DNA of 64,000 bases from an uncultured Candidatus Sumerlaeota bacterium (GCA_942493245.1 OW818685.1:4770973-4834972), one strand, 5' to 3'. Positions 29,889 through 48,971 are shown, numbered from the stretch's first letter. The notes: a model not told the origin generated them from the sequence alone. Numbers and translations: made by a program.

Positions 29889-31688
29889 TCACTGGTCCAG
29901 ACACCGCGCCACCGCCGCCGCCAGATCGGCTTTCGCCACCGGCTTGACCAGATACTCGCGAATCCCCAGGTCGGCAGCCTTCTGGGCGTCGAACGTCTCA
30001 CTGAACCCGGAACAGAGCAGAATGGGCAGATCGGGCCGGACCGACAAAATCCGCTGCGCCAGATCGGCCCCCGACATCTTTGGCATGGACATATCGGTAA
30101 TCACCAGGTCGCAAAGTGAAGGATCCTTCAGAAACATCGCCCAGGCGTCCACGGGGGACGTCAACGTCTGGACCTGATAGCCCAGGCTTTCCAGGACCCG
30201 TTGTCCCAACCGAGTCAGCGTCTCCTCATCATCCACAAAAAGAATCCGTCCGGTTCCGTGGCGAGGCGATGCCGAATCGTCCGAAACAGGCGGCGGTTGC
30301 GTTTCCTCTTCCGCACGGCAACAGGGGAAATACAGACTGAACGAAGTCCCCGAGCCGACCCGGCTTTTCATCGAAATATAGCCTCCCACACTCTTGACAA
30401 TCCCCAGAACCACGGACAACCCCATACCCGTCCCTTCTCCCCGGCCCTTCGTGGTGAAATAGGGATCGAAAATTCGCTCCAGATGCGACTCCTCGATACC
30501 GCAACCCGTATCGCTGACGATAAGCCGCACATAATCGCCCGCGGGTACCTCGCCCTCGACACAAACGACCTCGCGATCCCGCAGCGAGACAGGGGACAAC
30601 GACACGCGCAGGATGCCGCTTCCCTGTTCGCGCATCGCGTGGTAGGCGTTGGTGCATAGATTCATAACAACCTGATGGACCTGTGTCGCATCGCACCGGA
30701 TAACGCCACACCGCCGATCGAGAGATTCCTCGATCTCAATCGTCGAGGGGATCGTGGCGCGAATGAACCGCACCGCTTCCTGCACGACCGGTCGGATATC
30801 GGCGGGGAGAAACTTTTCCTCTTCATGCCGGGAAAATCCGAGGATCTGCCGCACGATTTCCTTCGCCCGGTGTCCGGCCTTGATAATCTCGTCGTAGTTG
30901 CTCACATCGAGATTCGCCGCCAGCAGATCCTCTCGCCCCAGATCGGCATATCCGATAATCGCCGTCAGAATGTTGTTGAAGTCGTGCGCGACCCCGCCCG
31001 CCAGCGCCCCCATCGCCTCCATTTTCTGGGCTTGCCGCAACCGCTTTTCCTCTTCCTCGCGCATTTGTTCTATTCTTTTCCGTTCGCTGATGTCGCGTAC
31101 CACCGCGATCACCCGCAGTTCGTCTCCCACTTCAAAGCGGCTCAGGGCCACCTCGACCCAGAAAACCTCTCCATTTTTGCGCCGACACTGCCATTCAAAA
31201 AGTTGGGGACCTTCCTGGGACGCCTGGCGAATCCGCCCGCAGGCCGTTTCCTGATCGTAGGACGACTGCCCTGAACTCAAGTCTCCCACCGACAGGTTCA
31301 ACGCTTCCTCCCGCGTGTATCCAAACGTGTTCAACATCGCCTGGTTCACATCCAGGATTTTCCCCTTTTGTGCGTCATGGATAAAAATGGCTTCCTGCGT
31401 TGAATTGAAAACCATCCGATAATTCGCTTCCGCCTGTCGCAACGTCTCCTGCGTTTGGGCCTCTTTCTTCAACTCTCTTAAAAAAAGCATATAGAGAATC
31501 CACGCCAGAACCGCCGTGTACACCCACCCCTTCACCATGGAAGCAATGGAAGCCCAGTCGCGATCCGGAATCAGCCACGCCACCAACTGATCGGAACACA
31601 GAATCCACAAGGCGGACAAAACCGCGTAGATCCCCGCAATACGCAAGGCGCTCTTCGCCGGAGAAGAGGGGGGTACGAGAGGCGTCAT
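29889..31688 (-). CDS. Membrane-anchored PAS sensor hybrid histidine kinase with C-terminal receiver domain
   Basis: Two N-terminal TM segments, then PAS, HisKA (HDFNN), HATPase_c, and a canonical REC (ILFVDDEE, DLVITDMSMP, KP). I prefer ATG 31688 (GGAGGGGGAC upstream) over the ORF-track start 31805. Confidence 0.85.
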   Translation of the reverse strand: MTPLVPPSSPAKSALRIAGIYAVLSALWILCSDQLVAWLIPDRDWASIASMVKGWVYTAVLAWILYMLFLRELKKEAQTQETLRQAEANYRMVFNSTQEAIFIHDAQKGKILDVNQAMLNTFGYTREEALNLSVGDLSSGQSSYDQETACGRIRQASQEGPQLFEWQCRRKNGEVFWVEVALSRFEVGDELRVIAVVRDISERKRIEQMREEEEKRLRQAQKMEAMGALAGGVAHDFNNILTAIIGYADLGREDLLAANLDVSNYDEIIKAGHRAKEIVRQILGFSRHEEEKFLPADIRPVVQEAVRFIRATIPSTIEIEESLDRRCGVIRCDATQVHQVVMNLCTNAYHAMREQGSGILRVSLSPVSLRDREVVCVEGEVPAGDYVRLIVSDTGCGIEESHLERIFDPYFTTKGRGEGTGMGLSVVLGIVKSVGGYISMKSRVGSGTSFSLYFPCCRAEEETQPPPVSDDSASPRHGTGRILFVDDEETLTRLGQRVLESLGYQVQTLTSPVDAWAMFLKDPSLCDLVITDMSMPKMSGADLAQRILSVRPDLPILLCSGFSETFDAQKAADLGIREYLVKPVAKADLAAAVARCLDQ

Positions 31689-31974
31689 GAAACCGTCCCC
31701 CTCCCCAGTGGGGTCCACATTCTCCTCATACTCCCCTTCCAGAAACCCACCGCGTAGAGAATCATCGAGAAGGCGCTCCCAAGGATATTCAAAGACAAAA
31801 ATCAAAAAACTCTTCCTGTACCAGGGAGAAGCCTACCCTTTTCGTCCACCTGCCTCAAGCAAAATCATAACACGCAAAAAGGCCGCGTCCGAAATTACGG
31901 GGACATGATCTCTCCCCTTCCGGACCGGCCTCGTTGCAAAGATGGAAACCTTTTCCATCCGCCGCGCCGCACAC

Positions 31975-34479
31975 TCAAATAAACAGGTTCACCTGCCCTG
32001 CCGAAGCGGCGCCCAGGTACATGGCCACGCCTCCTTCCTCGATTCCTTCGATCAATTCCTCACGCTTGATCCCCATCAAATCCATGGACATGGAACAGAC
32101 CACCAGCCGCGCGCCGCCCTGACGGGCCGACTGAATCAATTCGCCCAGCGCGGGCACCTTCTTCTGGCGCATGATCCCCTTGATCATAGCCAGTCCCATT
32201 CCGGCCATCTGCATTTTCGACAACGCCAGTTTTTCCGGCCCGCGCGGCATCATCCACCCGAACATCTTCTCGACCAGATTCTTCTGTACCGGTGGCGGGT
32301 TGTCGCGCCGCAGGATATTGATTCCCCAGAACGTGAAGAACAGCGTCGGTTTCAGCCCCATCGCCACCGCGCCATTGGCAATGATAAACGCCGCCACCGC
32401 CCGGTCGAAATCGTTGCTGAACACCACAATCGTCATCCCCTGCTGGCCCGGCGTCTGAGGCGCCGGACAAACCGCCGGAACAGCCGAGGCGCCCGCCACC
32501 GCCTTTTTCACGATCGCCCGGTTTTCTCCAGCGCCCGGCGTCACCTCGACCAGCGTGTGGCCCGTCGTCCGGCACCACGCGGGCAAATCGTTGCAGAATG
32601 CCGAGTCGGATGTCAGAATCTCGACCGCATCTCCCACATTCACCCCATCCACCGCTTCCTTGAGCAGCAGAATGGGACCCGGACATTGCAGCCCCCGCGC
32701 ATCCACCCGTTTGGTCACTGTCGGAGCCGATGCGCCACCACGGGAGTTTCCACTCGGTGCCGACGTGAAGGATGCCCCCGATTTTGATCCCGTATCGTCG
32801 CGCAGCGGCCCGCGCGGCTGTTTCGCCGTCTGGTTCTTCGCCATCAGGTACGTCTTATATCCCCCCGTCAAATTCCGGCAGGCAAATCCCTTTTGCGCCA
32901 GAATCCGGCACGCCAGATACCCGCGCAACCCCACCTGGCAATACACCAGAACTTCCTTGTCACGCGGAATCTCGTCCAGCCGCCCGCGCAATTCGTCCAC
33001 CGGGATGTTGTTCGCTCCGGGAATCGCCCCAGCCGCCACCTCGGCGCCCGTGCGCACATCGAGCAACCATTCGTGTGGCTGCGGGTCAACCACATCCTCG
33101 ACATGACACACCCGCATGTCGCCTCGCAACACGTTAGCCGCCACGAAGGCCGCGAAATTGACCGGATCCTTCGCCGACCCGTAGGGCGGCGCATAGGACA
33201 ATTCCGTCTCCTCCAGATCGAAAACCGTCATCCCCGCCTGAATGGCGGTGGCGAATACATCAATCCGTTTGTCTATTCCCCTCGGTCCTACCGCTTGCGC
33301 CCCCAGCACCCGACCGTCCGACGGATCGAACAACAACTTCAGACTGATCTGCGTCGCACCGGGATAGTATCCGGCGTGGTGAGCCGGGTGAACATAAATC
33401 TTCTCATAGCACCGGCCCAGCCGCTTCAACACCTTTTCGCTCGACCCGGTCATGCCGATGGCCAGCCCGAACACCTTGCAGATCGCCGTGCCCTGGGTCC
33501 CCCGCCACGGGCGCGGACGCCCGAACAGGTGATCCGCCACCAGTCGCCCTTGCCGGTTCGCCGGACCCGCCAGCGGCAGCAGCGCCATCCCACCGCTCAT
33601 AAAGTCCCGCGTCTCGATCGCATCGCCCACCGCATAGATAGCCGGGTCGGACGTGCGCAGATACTCGTCCACCGCGATCCCGCCCAGCGCGCCAATCGTC
33701 AGCCCCGCCTCGCGCGCCAGTCGCACCTCGGGCTTGACCCCAATGGCGAGAACCGCCAGTCCGCAGGTCAGTGTGTCGCCCGTGCTGAGGTGAACTTCCA
33801 GGCCCGTCTCGGTTTCCTGAAACGCGGTCACCGAAGTCTCCAACCGCAGATCCACCCCGTGGCGTTGCAATTCATCATGGAGAGGCGCCACCATCTCGGC
33901 ATCCGCCGGTCCCATCACCTGAGCCGCCAGTTCGACCAAAGTCACCTTCAACCCCCGCTCGCAGAGCGCCTCAGCCATCTCCAGACCGATATACCCACCC
34001 CCGACCACCACGGCGGACCGTGTGGCCGATTCCCCCAGGATGGACAGAATCCCATCCATGTCCTCCATGTTGCGCAAGGTGCGCACGGAACCGCTTTCCA
34101 CGCCCGGAATCGGAGGACGCACGGGTTCCGCGCCCGGACTCAGCGCCAGCGCGTCATACGCCTCGGTGTACTCGCGCCCGGTCTCCCGGTCGCGCACCAC
34201 CACCTGACGGTTTTCACGATCAATTCGCAATACCTCGTGGCGCACCCGCACATCCAGGCAAAACACCTGCTTCAGCCGCTCGGGTGTCTGGACCAGCAAC
34301 CGATCACGCTGCTCAATCACCCCCCCGATGTGGTAGGGCAACCCACAGTTGGCGAATGAGACATACGGCCCGCGTTCGAGCAGCACAATCTCCGCCTCTT
34401 CGTTCAACCGCCGCGCCCGCGCGGCGCAAGACGCCCCGCCCGCCACTCCACCCACCACCACCAGCTTGCGTACAGACAT
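31975..34479 (-). CDS. CoA-disulfide reductase / NADH oxidase-family flavoprotein fused to rhodanese, TusA-like and DsrE-like domains
   Basis: FAD/NAD(P) Rossmann motifs (VVVGGVAGG, VVVGGGYIGLE). Redox Cys in SFANCGLPY. Rhodanese active-site YCQVGLRG. TusA CPGP motif (LQCPGPILLLKEAV). The C-terminal DsrE/DsrF-like domain begins MTIVVFSNDFDRAVAAFIIANGA. Confidence 0.88.
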   Translation of the reverse strand: MSVRKLVVVGGVAGGASCAARARRLNEEAEIVLLERGPYVSFANCGLPYHIGGVIEQRDRLLVQTPERLKQVFCLDVRVRHEVLRIDRENRQVVVRDRETGREYTEAYDALALSPGAEPVRPPIPGVESGSVRTLRNMEDMDGILSILGESATRSAVVVGGGYIGLEMAEALCERGLKVTLVELAAQVMGPADAEMVAPLHDELQRHGVDLRLETSVTAFQETETGLEVHLSTGDTLTCGLAVLAIGVKPEVRLAREAGLTIGALGGIAVDEYLRTSDPAIYAVGDAIETRDFMSGGMALLPLAGPANRQGRLVADHLFGRPRPWRGTQGTAICKVFGLAIGMTGSSEKVLKRLGRCYEKIYVHPAHHAGYYPGATQISLKLLFDPSDGRVLGAQAVGPRGIDKRIDVFATAIQAGMTVFDLEETELSYAPPYGSAKDPVNFAAFVAANVLRGDMRVCHVEDVVDPQPHEWLLDVRTGAEVAAGAIPGANNIPVDELRGRLDEIPRDKEVLVYCQVGLRGYLACRILAQKGFACRNLTGGYKTYLMAKNQTAKQPRGPLRDDTGSKSGASFTSAPSGNSRGGASAPTVTKRVDARGLQCPGPILLLKEAVDGVNVGDAVEILTSDSAFCNDLPAWCRTTGHTLVEVTPGAGENRAIVKKAVAGASAVPAVCPAPQTPGQQGMTIVVFSNDFDRAVAAFIIANGAVAMGLKPTLFFTFWGINILRRDNPPPVQKNLVEKMFGWMMPRGPEKLALSKMQMAGMGLAMIKGIMRQKKVPALGELIQSARQGGARLVVCSMSMDLMGIKREELIEGIEEGGVAMYLGAASAGQVNLFI

Positions 34480-34566
34480 ACGAATGATTCCTCCCTCAAT
34501 GTGTTCCGGAATCGGCTTCCCGCGGCCGGGTCATCCGGGATCGAACTTCTCATACGACTCAATGCC

Positions 34567-34893
34567 TCAACCTGCGCCCGCTCGATCTTCCGGTGAGGAC
34601 TCGATTCCACAGGCGAAGCGGATACAATCGAGCATCCGCGGCAACCGGGGATTCACCACCCGGTAATAAACAGCCCGCCCCCGCCGTTCGCTCCCAAGCA
34701 AACCGTGCCCCTGGAGCAATCGCAGATGCCCACACGTCTGATGCTCCGAAAGACCGCACAGCCGCGCCACCTCGCGCACCGGGTATTCCCCACCCAACAG
34801 AATCTCCACCATGCGCAGACGCGCCGGGTGCGCCATGAGGCGAAAACATTCAGCGGCTTTCTCAAGTTGTTCGTACGGAATAGATTCTACCAT
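34567..34893 (-). CDS. ArsR/SmtB-family regulator, BigR/SqrR-like (candidate persulfide-sensing repressor)
   Basis: Winged HTH ...HPARLRMVEILL....VREVARLCGLSEHQTCGHLRLL. Cys residues sit in AECFRL (N-terminal helix) and LDCIRFAC (C-terminal). The gene lies directly upstream of the Cdr-rhodanese-TusA-DsrE gene on the same strand. Confidence 0.8.
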   Translation of the reverse strand: MVESIPYEQLEKAAECFRLMAHPARLRMVEILLGGEYPVREVARLCGLSEHQTCGHLRLLQGHGLLGSERRGRAVYYRVVNPRLPRMLDCIRFACGIESSPEDRAGAG

Positions 34894-34945
34894 ACCCCAC
34901 CCCTCGCCAGGCAAACTGAAAACGGGACATCTACGCCCCGCACAG

Positions 34946-34983
34946 ATATTGATATATCAAGACCTCTCGATATGTCAATATAT
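34946..34983. promoter_or_regulatory. AT-rich palindromes upstream of the ArsR gene (candidate operator)
   Basis: A perfect 12-bp palindrome TTGATATATCAA (34949-34960) and TCGATATGTCAATATAT (34967-34983) lie in the promoter region of the ArsR-Cdr operon. Confidence 0.4.
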
Positions 34984-35286
34984 TTCTCTATGCCTTGACC
35001 CAGACACAGGGAACACAGAAACGACACCCACCCGAAGGGATGCCCCCAAGACGCCCGTGCCACCTCCTGCGCGCGTCTGCGCTCCCTCACAGATCCGGAG
35101 TTTTTCAACCTTGCTTGACACGCCCACCCCGGACGTTTATGATTCCAGATAGACTGAGGGGTGGGGCATTCCGGGCACAACGAGATTGGGGACACACACG
35201 GTGAACTCCCCGTATCGGCCAGGTGCCTCGAAAACAGACCTGATCCCCATCCCCCAATACGTCACACGACAAGGAGATCTGCTTCG

Positions 35287-36084
35287 ATGGTGTTTCATCG
35301 GATTTTGGGCGGCCTGATCCTGGCCGGGTTATTGAGTGTTGTCTGCGGTTGCCGTCACTCCTCCCCCTATCGCTACGCCGATGGGGTCTTCCAGTACTCG
35401 ACCCTGCAGGCCCTGCTCGAGGGAGTGTACGACGGGGAGTTGGAGTGCGGCGAACTGCTCTCTCACGGCGACCTGGGAATTGGAACCTTCAACGCGCTCG
35501 ATGGGGAAATGATCGTTCTGGACGGGCAATGCTATCAGGCGAAAGCGAATGGCTCGATCCAGCGCGTCCCGGGAAACTGGAGCACCCCCTTCGCCACCGT
35601 CACCCCGTTCGACGAAGACGAAATTCTGCACCTGGGACAGGTCTCCTCTCTGGATGTCTTCACCGCCACGATGGATAAGGCCGCAACCAACCGCAATCTG
35701 CCCCTGGCGTTTCGCGTGGACGGAACCTTCACCTATATCAAGACGCGCAGTGTGCCTGCCCAGAAAAAACCCTACCCGCGTCTGGCCGACGCGGCCAAAC
35801 GGCAAAAAGTCACGGAAATCAAGAATGTGACCGGAACCATTGTCGGATTCCGCCTGCCACAGTATCTCAACGGCGTCAACGTGGCGGGGTACCACATGCA
35901 CTTCATTGACTCGAAACACCGCTGGGGCGGGCACGTACTGGATTTCTGGGCGCCTGCGCTGCGCGTGGCGCTCGACCCCTCGACCGATCTGCGCATCGTC
36001 CTGCCCCAGACCGACGAGTTCGCCCGGGCGAAACTGACTGAAAGCAAGGAAGCCGAAGTCCAGGCCGTGGAACGCGGAAAATAA
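35287..36084 (+). CDS. alsD: Alpha-acetolactate decarboxylase with N-terminal signal/lipoprotein-like peptide
   Basis: GVFQYSTLQALLEGVYDGE...GDLGIGTFNALDGEMIVLDGQCYQ is the ALDC signature. ATG 35287 has AAGGAG 11 nt upstream. The N-terminus is MVFHRILGGLILAGLLSVVCGC. Confidence 0.85.
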   Translation: MVFHRILGGLILAGLLSVVCGCRHSSPYRYADGVFQYSTLQALLEGVYDGELECGELLSHGDLGIGTFNALDGEMIVLDGQCYQAKANGSIQRVPGNWSTPFATVTPFDEDEILHLGQVSSLDVFTATMDKAATNRNLPLAFRVDGTFTYIKTRSVPAQKKPYPRLADAAKRQKVTEIKNVTGTIVGFRLPQYLNGVNVAGYHMHFIDSKHRWGGHVLDFWAPALRVALDPSTDLRIVLPQTDEFARAKLTESKEAEVQAVERGK

Positions 36085-47210: not shown

Positions 47211-48971
47211 ATGAACTTTGAGCCTGTTAACACCAAAAGACCGGGTATGCGGGGTAAGGGGGAGAAACTGGGGGATCTGCTCTTGAAAAAGGGAGCCATT
47301 TCGCCCGAGAATCTCAAAACCGCCTTGAGTTACCAGCGTAGCACCAAGGAAAAGCTGGGACTGATTCTGCTGGAGATGGGTGTGACCAGCGAAGCAGATC
47401 TAGCCGAGGCGCTTGGGGTGCAGTTCGATTTGCCGTTTGTCATGGTTTCACAAGAGGAGATCGAGCCGCAGGCCCTCAGTGTCATTCCCCGGGAAGTGGC
47501 GCTCAAGCACCAGATTCTTCCCATGCGGGTTCAGGGGAATGACTTGACCATTGCCATTTCCGACCCAAGCAATGTCTTTCTGCTCGATGAATTGCGCATG
47601 TTGACGCAGATGCGAATCCATGCGGTCATTTCCTTCAACACCGATATCACACGGGCGCTGTACCGTTATTACGGCGTCCCGGTTGAAACGACCAACAGTG
47701 TGGATGAAATTCTAAGTCAAATGGATGATGGGCAGGTCGAAGTCATTCAACGGTACGAAGATGCCAGCGAGGAAGAAGACACGGATTCGGCATCCCGCGT
47801 GAGTGACGCTCCGATTATCAAGCTTGTCAACGCCATCATTTCCGAAGCGATCCGCGCTCGAGCCTCCGATATTCATATCGAGCCGTTCGACGCGTCGGTG
47901 CGGTTGCGCTACCGGATAGACGGCGTCCTGCAGCAGCGTCCGGATCTGCCCCGCAGCCATCAGAACGCCATCATTTCCCGCATCAAGATTCTCTCGGGGA
48001 TGGATATCGCCGAGAGGCGGTTGCCCCAGGATGGCCGTTTTCGTGTGCGGAGTGGAGGCAGCTCCGTGGACCTGCGGGTCAACACCGTGCCCACGCCCAG
48101 TGGCGAAAAAGTTGTGATGCGGTTGCTCGATCAGTCCAATCTGATGGTGAACCTCGAGTCGCTCGGGTTCATGCCAGACGATATGGCGCGATTCCAGCAG
48201 GAGATCCACAAGCCGTGGGGGATGTGCCTGGTAACCGGGCCGACCGGCAGCGGCAAATCCACGACTTTGTACTCGGCTCTATCGAGTATCAACTCGCCGG
48301 GGAAAAATATCAGTACCGTCGAAGATCCGGTCGAGTACCGCCTGCCGGGGATCATTCAGGTGGCGGCCAACGACAACATCGGCCTGTCGTTCGCCTCAGC
48401 CCTGAGGGCGTTTCTGCGGCAGGATCCGGACATCATCATGGTCGGGGAAATTCGCGATCTGGAAACGGCCCAGGTAGCCGTGAAAGCCGCCCAGACGGGG
48501 CACATGGTGTTCAGCACCCTCCACACCAACGACGCGGCCAGCGCCATCAGCCGGTTGACCAATATGGGAGTGGAACCGTTTCTGATCAGCGGGTCTCTGA
48601 ACATGGTGGTCGCCCAGCGTCTTGTGCGGCGCATCTGCAAAAGTTGCAAAGAGTTTTATGAACCCTCGGAACAGATTTACAAAGACCTGGGGATGAACAC
48701 CGAAAAAATGATGCCGGCCTTGTACCGGGGGTTGGGGTGCGAAGCGTGCAGCATGAATGGCTACAAGGGCCGTGTGGCCCTCTACGAGGTGCTTACCGTT
48801 TCCGACAACCTGCGCGACGCCATCGTCGAGGGAGCCAATGCCACGGCGCTCAAGCGTCTGGCCCTCAAAGAGGGGATGCGCAGTCTGCGCGGATCGGGAA
48901 TTTTGAAAGTCGTCGAAGGAATTACTACGGCCGATGAAGTGCTGGCCAGCACTGTGATGGATCCTCTTTGA
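47211..48971 (+). CDS. gspE: Type II secretion / type IV pilus assembly ATPase (GspE/PilB family)
   Basis: 586 aa with an N-terminal GSPII_E_N domain, Walker A GPTGSGKSTT, Asp/His boxes, and a C-terminal tetracysteine (CKSC...CEAC). AAGGTGG RBS. Confidence 0.93.
   Translation: MNFEPVNTKRPGMRGKGEKLGDLLLKKGAISPENLKTALSYQRSTKEKLGLILLEMGVTSEADLAEALGVQFDLPFVMVSQEEIEPQALSVIPREVALKHQILPMRVQGNDLTIAISDPSNVFLLDELRMLTQMRIHAVISFNTDITRALYRYYGVPVETTNSVDEILSQMDDGQVEVIQRYEDASEEEDTDSASRVSDAPIIKLVNAIISEAIRARASDIHIEPFDASVRLRYRIDGVLQQRPDLPRSHQNAIISRIKILSGMDIAERRLPQDGRFRVRSGGSSVDLRVNTVPTPSGEKVVMRLLDQSNLMVNLESLGFMPDDMARFQQEIHKPWGMCLVTGPTGSGKSTTLYSALSSINSPGKNISTVEDPVEYRLPGIIQVAANDNIGLSFASALRAFLRQDPDIIMVGEIRDLETAQVAVKAAQTGHMVFSTLHTNDAASAISRLTNMGVEPFLISGSLNMVVAQRLVRRICKSCKEFYEPSEQIYKDLGMNTEKMMPALYRGLGCEACSMNGYKGRVALYEVLTVSDNLRDAIVEGANATALKRLALKEGMRSLRGSGILKVVEGITTADEVLASTVMDPL

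Follow-up and report, generated by a model that had tools for sequence, protein, structure and literature searches.

We examined a 64,000-nt stretch of DNA (hereafter the window, with all coordinates counted from its first letter) from an uncultured Candidatus Sumerlaeota bacterium (GCA_942493245.1, OW818685.1:4770973-4834972), in which a gene for an ArsR-like repressor (arsR, 34567..34893) lies directly upstream of a gene for an 834-aa fusion enzyme of the CoADR/Npsr-rhodanese-TusA-DsrE type (31975..34479, stop codon included). Both genes are on the minus strand and are separated by an 87-nt gap, in which a terminator scan found no terminator-like structure. A terminator-like hairpin followed by a T-run (31872..31888, minus strand), located 87 nt past the enzyme stop codon and ahead of a hybrid histidine kinase gene, is the probable end of the operon. 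No further ArsR or sulfur-relay genes were found elsewhere in the window, which contains one ArsR gene and one sulfur enzyme gene only. Based on the sequence comparisons described below, we consider it rather likely that the two genes form a self-contained operon, encoding a persulfide/polysulfide reductase module that regulates its own expression, is induced by sulfane sulfur and relies on a non-canonical thiol sensor. Within the window, the locus is an ordinary, well-conserved sulfur-stress module.

The regulator gene was recovered mechanically as an open reading frame at 34567..34914, beginning with a TTG at 34914. The ATG at 34893 is preceded by a Shine-Dalgarno-like run (GAGGGG) and is the start common to the relatives at loci L001 and L011; regulator residue numbers refer to the 108-aa protein that begins there. 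This protein scored 66.9 bits against the NCBIfam ArsR/SmtB model (NF033788, cut-off 55), and was below the gathering thresholds of the Pfam models HTH_5 and HTH_20. An AlphaFold2 model (predicted local distance difference test score of 90.5) has helices at residues 7-20, 23-33, 39-46, 50-62 and 83-94, in the order alpha1-alpha2-alpha3-alpha4-beta-beta-alpha5, and its top Foldseek matches were NolR, SmtB, AntR, BigR and YgaV (all with a probability of 1.00), i.e., a generic ArsR/SmtB fold. The regulator is a member of the ArsR/SmtB winged-helix family, and the placement of such a gene immediately upstream of the fusion gene, as given in a preliminary description of this DNA, is correct.

The regulator belongs to a clade that comprises 53 clusters at 90% identity and is found in at least 361 GTDB species genomes. 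Most carriers belong to the Planctomycetota (Phycisphaerae, Sedimentisphaerales, Pirellulales, Brocadiia), with additional Sumerlaeota, Armatimonadota and Victivallales, and the best genome match of the regulator (88% identity) is in a Candidatus Sumerlaeota metagenome-assembled genome (MAG). Carriers in culture include Rhodopirellula baltica (subclade B, see below), Rhodopirellula sp. SM50, Rubripirellula obstinata and Planctomycetaceae SH139 (loci L057, L071, L074 and L062). Species counts below refer to the best 80 loci of species-level genomes (L011-L090), complemented by metagenomic contexts (within L001-L010) and by 149 wider representatives at 50% identity. Among the 80 species, C16 (alpha1) and H22 are present in all, C90 (alpha5) and H56 (in the recognition helix, alpha4) in 79 each, and C46 (at the end of alpha3) in 77. 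Two subclades differ at three further positions: the 43 loci of subclade A, the window among them, carry C54 (alpha4), C95 and mostly H63, while the 34 loci of subclade B carry S54, F/Y95 and C63. Across the wider representatives, C90 is the most persistent cysteine, followed by C16, and C46 is often replaced by Leu, Val or Met. Some of the proteins carry two tandem clade domains in one chain of about 196-234 aa (P0234, P0236, P0256, P0271, P0277, P0281, P0295, P0299, P0306, P0313 and P0316) and are predicted to be covalent pseudo-dimers. One 356-aa protein (P0262) has three matched stretches, and many of these multi-domain representatives do not have C16.

The regulator's cysteines had been described as positioned like the sensing pair of BigR and SqrR, an idea that hinged on their alignment with that pair. 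When the PDB sequences of BigR, SqrR and HlyU were aligned with the regulator family, the alpha2 sensing cysteine (C42 in BigR, C41 in SqrR, and its HlyU equivalent) fell on Glu30, four residues past an invariant Arg-Leu with no gap possible. This position is E, D, N or Q in the clade, with Cys in none of the 80 species and in only 2 of the 149 wider representatives. The alpha5 cysteine of BigR (C108), SqrR (C107) and HlyU lies 19 residues past a conserved beta2 Tyr, which corresponds to Gly96 in the regulator. C95 is at +18 from the same Tyr, one residue off the position used by these sensors, which belong to cluster 4 of the ArsR sequence similarity network; a one-residue register shift is possible, and the cysteine occurs in subclade A only. 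Because the alpha2 cysteine is absent, the canonical alpha2-alpha5 pair is unusable by this regulator, and the description did not hold.

That the regulator is nonetheless a canonical cluster 4 persulfide sensor, with an intraprotomer polysulfide bridge between alpha2 and alpha5 cysteines, is consistent with its ArsR fold, with a gene neighborhood resembling the BigR, SqrR and YgaV operons, with the shared AHP motif, with the aromatic residue at alpha5 +18 in subclade B (as in cluster 4), and with the proximity of C95 to the cluster 4 alpha5 position. Yet Glu30 and Gly96 occupy the two sensing positions, the NCBIfam BigR equivalog hidden Markov model (NF040642) gave 30 bits against a cut-off of 155, and by both sequence and fold the regulator is roughly equidistant from SmtB, NmtR, Rv0081, YgaV, BigR and SqrR, and so no closer to the persulfide sensors than to the others. 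We rejected this explanation on the alignment, which already refutes it at sequence level for the alpha2 cysteine, and consider it very unlikely. The ArsR-family reactive-sulfur sensors known to a 2026 review are only SqrR, BigR, YgaV, HlyU, PigS, sHdrR and SoxR.

We assessed how consistently the regulator clade associates with genes of reactive-sulfur metabolism. In seven metagenomic contexts with unrelated flanking genes, the regulator was in all cases directly upstream of sulfur genes. Partners were the four-domain enzyme (L001, L003, L004, L005), a rhodanese (Rhd) together with a CoA-disulfide reductase (CoADR)-Rhd (L008/9), a CoADR-Rhd alone (L010), or a set of genes for a YgaP-like Rhd, TauE, a PDO-Rhd and a cysteine-dioxygenase-like (CDO) protein (L007), the last of these being the gene content of a BigR-type operon. 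Among the 80 species loci, a CoADR-type or rhodanese-type gene adjoined the regulator or was within about 1.1 kb in 66. The downstream gene in subclade A was the four-domain enzyme (27 loci) or a CoADR(-Rhd) (14 loci), accounting for 41 of 43 loci, and in subclade B a YgaP-like rhodanese with or without a PDO-rhodanese (20 loci) or a CoADR-Rhd (4 loci), accounting for 24 of 34; the remaining neighbors in subclade B included occasional DSP-phosphatase-like, thioredoxin or methyltransferase-DsrE genes. The reciprocal cysteine patterns track the neighbor, with C54, C95 and H63 accompanying CoADR-type enzymes, and S54, F95 and C63 accompanying YgaP-like rhodanese and PDO-rhodanese. The sole member of the 80 without C90 (Tyr instead; L049:1671-1982) has neither an operator of the kind described below nor a sulfur neighbor, and is followed by a HIT-family gene. 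In one contig of Phycisphaerae type (L005:1-4601), the module is beside genes for a NiFe hydrogenase large subunit, Oxidored_q6, a FAD/NAD-binding subunit and a Fer4_22 subunit, a four-gene cluster that resembles a sulfhydrogenase and would fit a sulfur-reduction role. Co-localization with sulfurtransferases and persulfide-metabolizing enzymes, which is the genomic context of cluster 4, was found at 66 of the 80 species loci and in the seven metagenomic contexts. On comparative grounds, these neighborhoods argue strongly for control of reactive-sulfur metabolism by the clade.

A putative operator was identified upstream of arsR as a 20-bp palindrome at 34954..34973 (minus strand, ATATCG-AGAGGTCT-TGATAT), which matches 11 of the 12 half-site positions of ATATCG-N8-CGATAT and has the inner A(+8) and T(+11) intact. 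Upstream of arsR, this palindrome is perfect (12/12) in 41 of the 80 species and matches at 11 or more of the 12 positions in 61, while by our estimate chance alone would give about 0.001 perfect matches over the 80 x 260 nt searched. The consensus of 71 sites is ATTGAC-ATATCG-nnAnnTnn-CGATAT-ATTGAT, with A(+8) in all 71 and T(+11) in 69. At two loci (L008 and L072), both half-sites are changed symmetrically to ACTTCG-N8-CGAAGT; the palindrome is kept because the same change occurs in both halves. The window holds no additional operators that might indicate a regulon: 34954..34973 is the sole good copy, and the sole other match with two mismatches, at 47628, is at chance level.

Palindromic AT-rich operator candidates had been proposed upstream of the operon, and an AT-rich predicted operator is indeed present there, as is the exact sequence TTGATATATCAA (34949..34960) then singled out. 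That sequence consists of the last spacer base, the right half-site and five flanking bases of the 20-bp palindrome, and its two-mismatch copy on the plus strand (TCGATATGTCAA, 34967..34978) corresponds to the -35 hexamer plus the left half-site. With up to two mismatches, TTGATATATCAA has 4 matches in the window compared with 0.42 expected. As an operator on its own it was rejected after the 80-species comparison and replaced by the 20-bp palindrome, which spans the inner halves of the two palindromes noted.

The predicted operator fills the spacer of a putative sigma-70-type promoter and overlaps both of its hexamers. Read from the sequence, this promoter (34951..34978, minus strand) comprises a -35 hexamer TTGACA (34978..34973), a 16-nt spacer and a -10-like hexamer TATATC (34956..34951). 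The same arrangement recurs across the clade: TTGA[ACT] is immediately 5' of the left half-site in 51 of the 71 loci, a TAYNNT -10-like hexamer is present in 54, and in the clade consensus the right half-site continues into a -10-like TATATT at a spacing of 16 nt. Given the position of the operator between -35 and -10, a bound dimer would occlude RNA polymerase. The 8-nt spacing between half-sites is as in the SqrR operator (ATTC-N8-GAAT), while the half-site itself differs (ATATCG in this clade, ATTC in SqrR). Between operator and start codon, the arsR 5' leader contains a GC-rich hairpin followed by UUUUCAGUUUG (34922..34941, minus strand), which gave a terminator-like match and is conserved in the two closest relatives (L001 and L011). 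The 61-nt leader (34890..34950) has a predicted folding energy of -22.6 kcal/mol (z = -2.1), and the hairpin looks like an intrinsic terminator or attenuator inside the leader. Rfam gave no match in the leader.

In comparison with BigR, SqrR, YgaV, HlyU, PigS, SoxR and sHdrR, members of the clade are alike in being small ArsR repressors encoded beside rhodanese, PDO, TauE and persulfide-reductase genes, and in having promoter-overlapping palindromic operators. They are unlike cluster 4 in having neither the alpha2 cysteine nor the alpha5 cysteine at +19, and instead have the invariant C16, the mid-alpha5 C90, and subclade-specific C54/C95 or C63. Judged by these comparisons, the clade appears as a well-delimited branch of ArsR proteins that is a BigR-type repressor by context, yet must sense its signal differently.

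The product of the downstream gene has the four domains that were first described for it. A Pfam scan identified Pyr_redox_2 (residues 5-295, 9e-62), Pyr_redox, Pyr_redox_dim (332-433), Rhodanese (469-544, 1.6e-12), TusA (590-659, 1.6e-19) and DrsE_2 (681-833, 3e-54). On the minus strand of the window, these correspond to a FAD/NAD(P)H disulfide-reductase module (33130..34479, aa 1-450; Pyr_redox_2, Pyr_redox and Pyr_redox_dim) with redox Cys45 in SFANCGLPYH, a rhodanese domain (32824..33117, aa about 455-552; PF00581) with catalytic Cys514 in VYCQVGLRG, a TusA domain (32497..32718, aa about 588-661; PF01206) with Cys599 (CPGP motif) and another invariant cysteine, Cys636, and a DsrE-like (DrsE_2) domain (31978..32442, aa about 680-834; PF13686) with Cys795. 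In an alignment with 120 homologs, C45, C514, C599, C636 and C795 were each present in all 121 sequences; C334, C534 and C458 were also nearly invariant, and most remaining cysteines varied.

Residues 4-547 of the enzyme align end to end with Npsr of Shewanella loihica (PDB 3NTA; 657 bits, about 60% identity), and the Cys45 and Cys514 motifs line up with the Npsr active-site motif and FCQVGLRG, respectively. Strong matches were also obtained to the CoADR-RHD of Bacillus anthracis (3ICR/3ICS) and the CoAPR of Enterococcus faecalis (8A56), and the C-terminal domain matches a 'putative sulfurtransferase DsrE' (PDB 3PNX, 3e-28). The enzyme therefore has the combination that defines the Npsr/CoADR-RHD/CoAPR group, namely a CoADR-type flavoprotein with a single redox cysteine and a C-terminal rhodanese with a catalytic cysteine. 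It differs from that group by a C-terminal extension of about 290 residues, made up of a low-complexity linker, TusA and the DsrE-like domain. By Pfam order, rhodanese, TusA and DsrE-like domains follow one another on one chain with an invariant cysteine in each, as in a CstA-like relay. On published knowledge, CstA, the sulfurtransferase of the cst operon, has the same Rhd-TusA-DsrE order with a cysteine in each domain. CstA of Staphylococcus aureus differs in having no flavoprotein reductase module and in being under CstR control, and CoAPR is regulated by CstR, a sensor of the CsoR family, instead of an ArsR protein. At the level of predicted function, these comparisons identify the enzyme as a persulfide reductase of Npsr/CoAPR type to which a TusA-DsrE relay has been added.

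The preliminary description also held that the four domains are usually spread over separate proteins, which was overstated. In a search of 5.8 billion proteins, all 120 best hits (59-86% identity) had the full four-domain architecture, and their carriers included Sumerlaeota, Armatimonadota, Planctomycetota, Kiritimatiellales and others. The fusion has also been described in three papers, as BF638R_0572 of Bacteroides fragilis, as Pcar_0429 of Pelobacter carbinolicus, and as a 'DsrE-Npsr-TusA fusion' in MAGs of Nealsonbacteria and Phycisphaeraceae; the Pfam architecture of these reported four-domain orthologs is identical, and their lengths (about 820-830 aa) are similar. The idea of a rare or novel fusion was rejected on these grounds. 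BF638R_0572 was upregulated 50-fold in a mutant without the MarR-type regulator BmoR, and this tight repression by a dedicated regulator is a precedent for a regulated four-domain enzyme, with the difference that the regulatory partner is of ArsR type here and in many Planctomycetota and Sumerlaeota. Our literature search found no biochemical study of the four-domain form. The enzyme part of the module is thus already known and common, and what is new is the regulator clade.

The reactive-sulfur role first suggested for the module is supported by the high Npsr score, the five invariant relay or redox cysteines and the link between the regulator family and sulfur genes. From the anatomy and conservation of the site, a regulator dimer most likely binds ATATCG-nnAnnTnn-yGATAT at 34954..34973, and binding in its own promoter would repress arsR together with the co-transcribed enzyme gene. 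The regulator would most likely be released when clade-specific cysteines are modified by sulfane sulfur or by thiol oxidation. C90 (alpha5) and C16 (alpha1) are the candidate sensing cysteines, joined in subclade A by C54 and C95. We used the alpha5 ligands of SmtB (D104/H106 and H117'/E120') as a register for C90. This register would put C90 within about one residue of the two-fold axis of the dimer, and C16, in the middle of alpha1, in the four-helix interface that also contains C90. With these two placements, a switch between protomers or between alpha1 and alpha5 is plausible.

The same cysteines could instead serve as ligands. In this alternative, the conserved Cys and His residues (C16, C46 and C90, plus C54/C95/H63 or C63) would bind a metal, a metalloid or an iron-sulfur (Fe-S) cluster, and the regulator would sense metal, redox state or cluster integrity rather than sulfane sulfur directly. 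ArsR/SmtB proteins are classically metal sensors, and a dithiol switch would not require the four or more conserved cysteines per protomer. The C90-x4-C95 pattern of alpha5 is reminiscent of atypical As(III)/Sb(III) sensors with alpha5 ligands, C90 near the two-fold axis could form a four-cysteine site with C16 if the SmtB register applies, and position 63, a Cys in subclade B and a His in subclade A, falls, by manual register, on the Cd/Pb ligand Cys61 of CmtR. Models of CmtR and Rv2640c matched weakly (36 bits), but metal-specific NCBIfam models were all far below their cut-offs. Among the 90 loci examined, where not every neighbor was scanned, no metal transporter or ars genes were noted beside the regulator other than, in L010, an unrelated zinc ABC cluster encoded on the other strand; the neighbors found were rhodaneses, persulfide reductases, PDO-Rhd, TauE and CDO. 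We regard metal or cluster sensing as improbable, although less so than a canonical cluster 4 sensor. A more specific form of the non-canonical thiol sensor that we favor, which we offer as a tentative suggestion, is a second and independently evolved class of ArsR reactive-sulfur sensors in Planctomycetota, Sumerlaeota, Armatimonadota and Victivallales. Such sensors would have a cysteine cluster in the alpha1/alpha5 dimer interface, either bridged as C90-Sn-C90' or C16-Sn-C90, or with four cysteines holding an Fe-S cluster or metal whose sulfuration state is sensed.

For the enzyme, a relay can be proposed from the published mechanisms of Npsr, CoADR-RHD, CoAPR and TusA/DsrE relays. Sulfane sulfur would be taken up as cysteine persulfide and passed from DsrE C795 to TusA C599, to rhodanese C514 and on to the CoA/Cys45 redox center, where FAD-dependent reduction at the expense of NAD(P)H would yield H2S. 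Physiologically, the module would serve to detoxify or buffer persulfide and polysulfide, and possibly also as an NADH-oxidizing electron sink in anaerobes. The latter could even be the main role, with the enzyme acting as a catabolic reductase of elemental sulfur or polysulfide in fermentative or anaerobic Planctomycetota and Sumerlaeota and the operon being induced by its substrate. Many carriers are anaerobes (Sedimentisphaerales, Anaerohalosphaeraceae, anammox Brocadiia), and the module in L005 is beside the sulfhydrogenase-like NiFe hydrogenase cluster. In Shewanella, a sulfur reducer, Npsr was reportedly described by Lee and co-workers in 2014 as a persulfide/polysulfide reductase that depends on NADH. 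Pcar_0429, which shares the four domains, has been proposed as a terminal S0 reductase, and the authors of the MAG study suggested that the fusion reduces S0 inside the cell. On the other hand, the enzyme is a soluble cytoplasmic protein that has neither a membrane module nor a quinone module, and the same regulator clade accompanies PDO-Rhd, TauE and YgaP-type detoxification genes in aerobic Pirellulales. A mainly catabolic role is a possibility that we hold with some doubt; it is compatible with a sulfane-sulfur-inducible reductase module and differs in physiology only.

An alternative substrate was also considered, in which the TusA and DsrE domains carry thiosulfonate and the enzyme processes thiosulfate or tetrathionate, as in DsrE3A/TusA of Metallosphaera. 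The B. fragilis study connects BF638R_0572 with doxDA/trxP and refers to the transfer of thiosulfate by DsrE/TusA. However, no Dox, Tth or Sox genes were seen beside the enzyme gene in the window or the sampled loci, the closest solved relatives are persulfide reductases, and the DsrE2 equivalog model (NF047629) gave 69.6 bits against a cut-off of 210. We consider thiosulfonate transfer very unlikely.

Several observations weigh against an autoregulated, sulfane-sulfur-inducible module with a non-canonical thiol sensor. At the promoter, a strict scan did not call the window promoter, the -10 of which has no final T. In the closest relative (L001, regulator 90% identical), a 10-bp deletion removes the left half-site of the operator (L001:100-150 compared with window 34950..34985); the right flank and leader hairpin are retained, and this locus may be a derepressed variant. 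For the regulator, the identity of the inducer is deduced only from gene neighborhood, and the sensing cysteines are candidates, with the proximity of C16, C90 and C90' taken from the SmtB ligand register. Among the wider representatives, C16 is often absent while C90 is kept, such that a simple C16-C90 pair is not universal. C46 is Ser or Ala in 3 of the 80 species and at a buried position of the helix-turn-helix core, where it may be structural, and C54 is at a DNA-contact position that is Ser in other ArsR proteins. For the enzyme, the score against the CoA-disulfide reductase equivalog model (TIGR03385) was 475.8 bits, below the cut-off of 578.8, which suggests a protein that is related to bona fide CoA-disulfide reductase yet no equivalog of it.

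Genes and features around the operon were also surveyed. Directly downstream, a PAS-HisKA-HATPase-REC hybrid histidine kinase is encoded at 29889..31805 (minus strand), as it is in the closest relative (L001:3281-5176). It was not beside the other loci examined, and its adjacency is probably mere local synteny. The divergent neighbor (35161..36084, plus strand) is an alpha-acetolactate decarboxylase (Pfam 1e-81), with an 11/12 sigma-70-like promoter nearby at 35115..35143. Its domain begins at residue 76, past a hydrophobic segment ending in ...LLSVVCGC that resembles a lipoprotein signal, an odd start for an enzyme that is normally cytoplasmic. The sole Rfam match in the region was sub-threshold, to V_AS7 (Vibrio antisense RNA AS7) at 34283..34451 (plus strand), antisense to the 5' end of the enzyme gene (48 bits compared with a gathering threshold of 90, E = 2.7e-7, full model length). 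This match most likely reflects the conserved FAD-binding coding sequence of a Vibrio homolog and not an RNA gene.

Structural work on SqrR has tied persulfide specificity to its dithiol site. Since every ArsR reactive-sulfur sensor characterized so far uses the alpha2-alpha5 pair, and the clade described here does not have this pair, the clade would, if it senses persulfides, represent an independent solution to the problem of discriminating persulfides from oxidants. Its putative operator, ATATCG-nnAnnTnn-CGATAT, is clean and predictable, and could be used for regulon mapping in poorly studied phyla or for biosensors. The four-domain enzyme lends itself to studies of how sulfur from a TusA/DsrE relay reaches a flavoprotein persulfide reductase, and the locus as a whole offers a way into what may be a second ArsR solution for sensing reactive sulfur.

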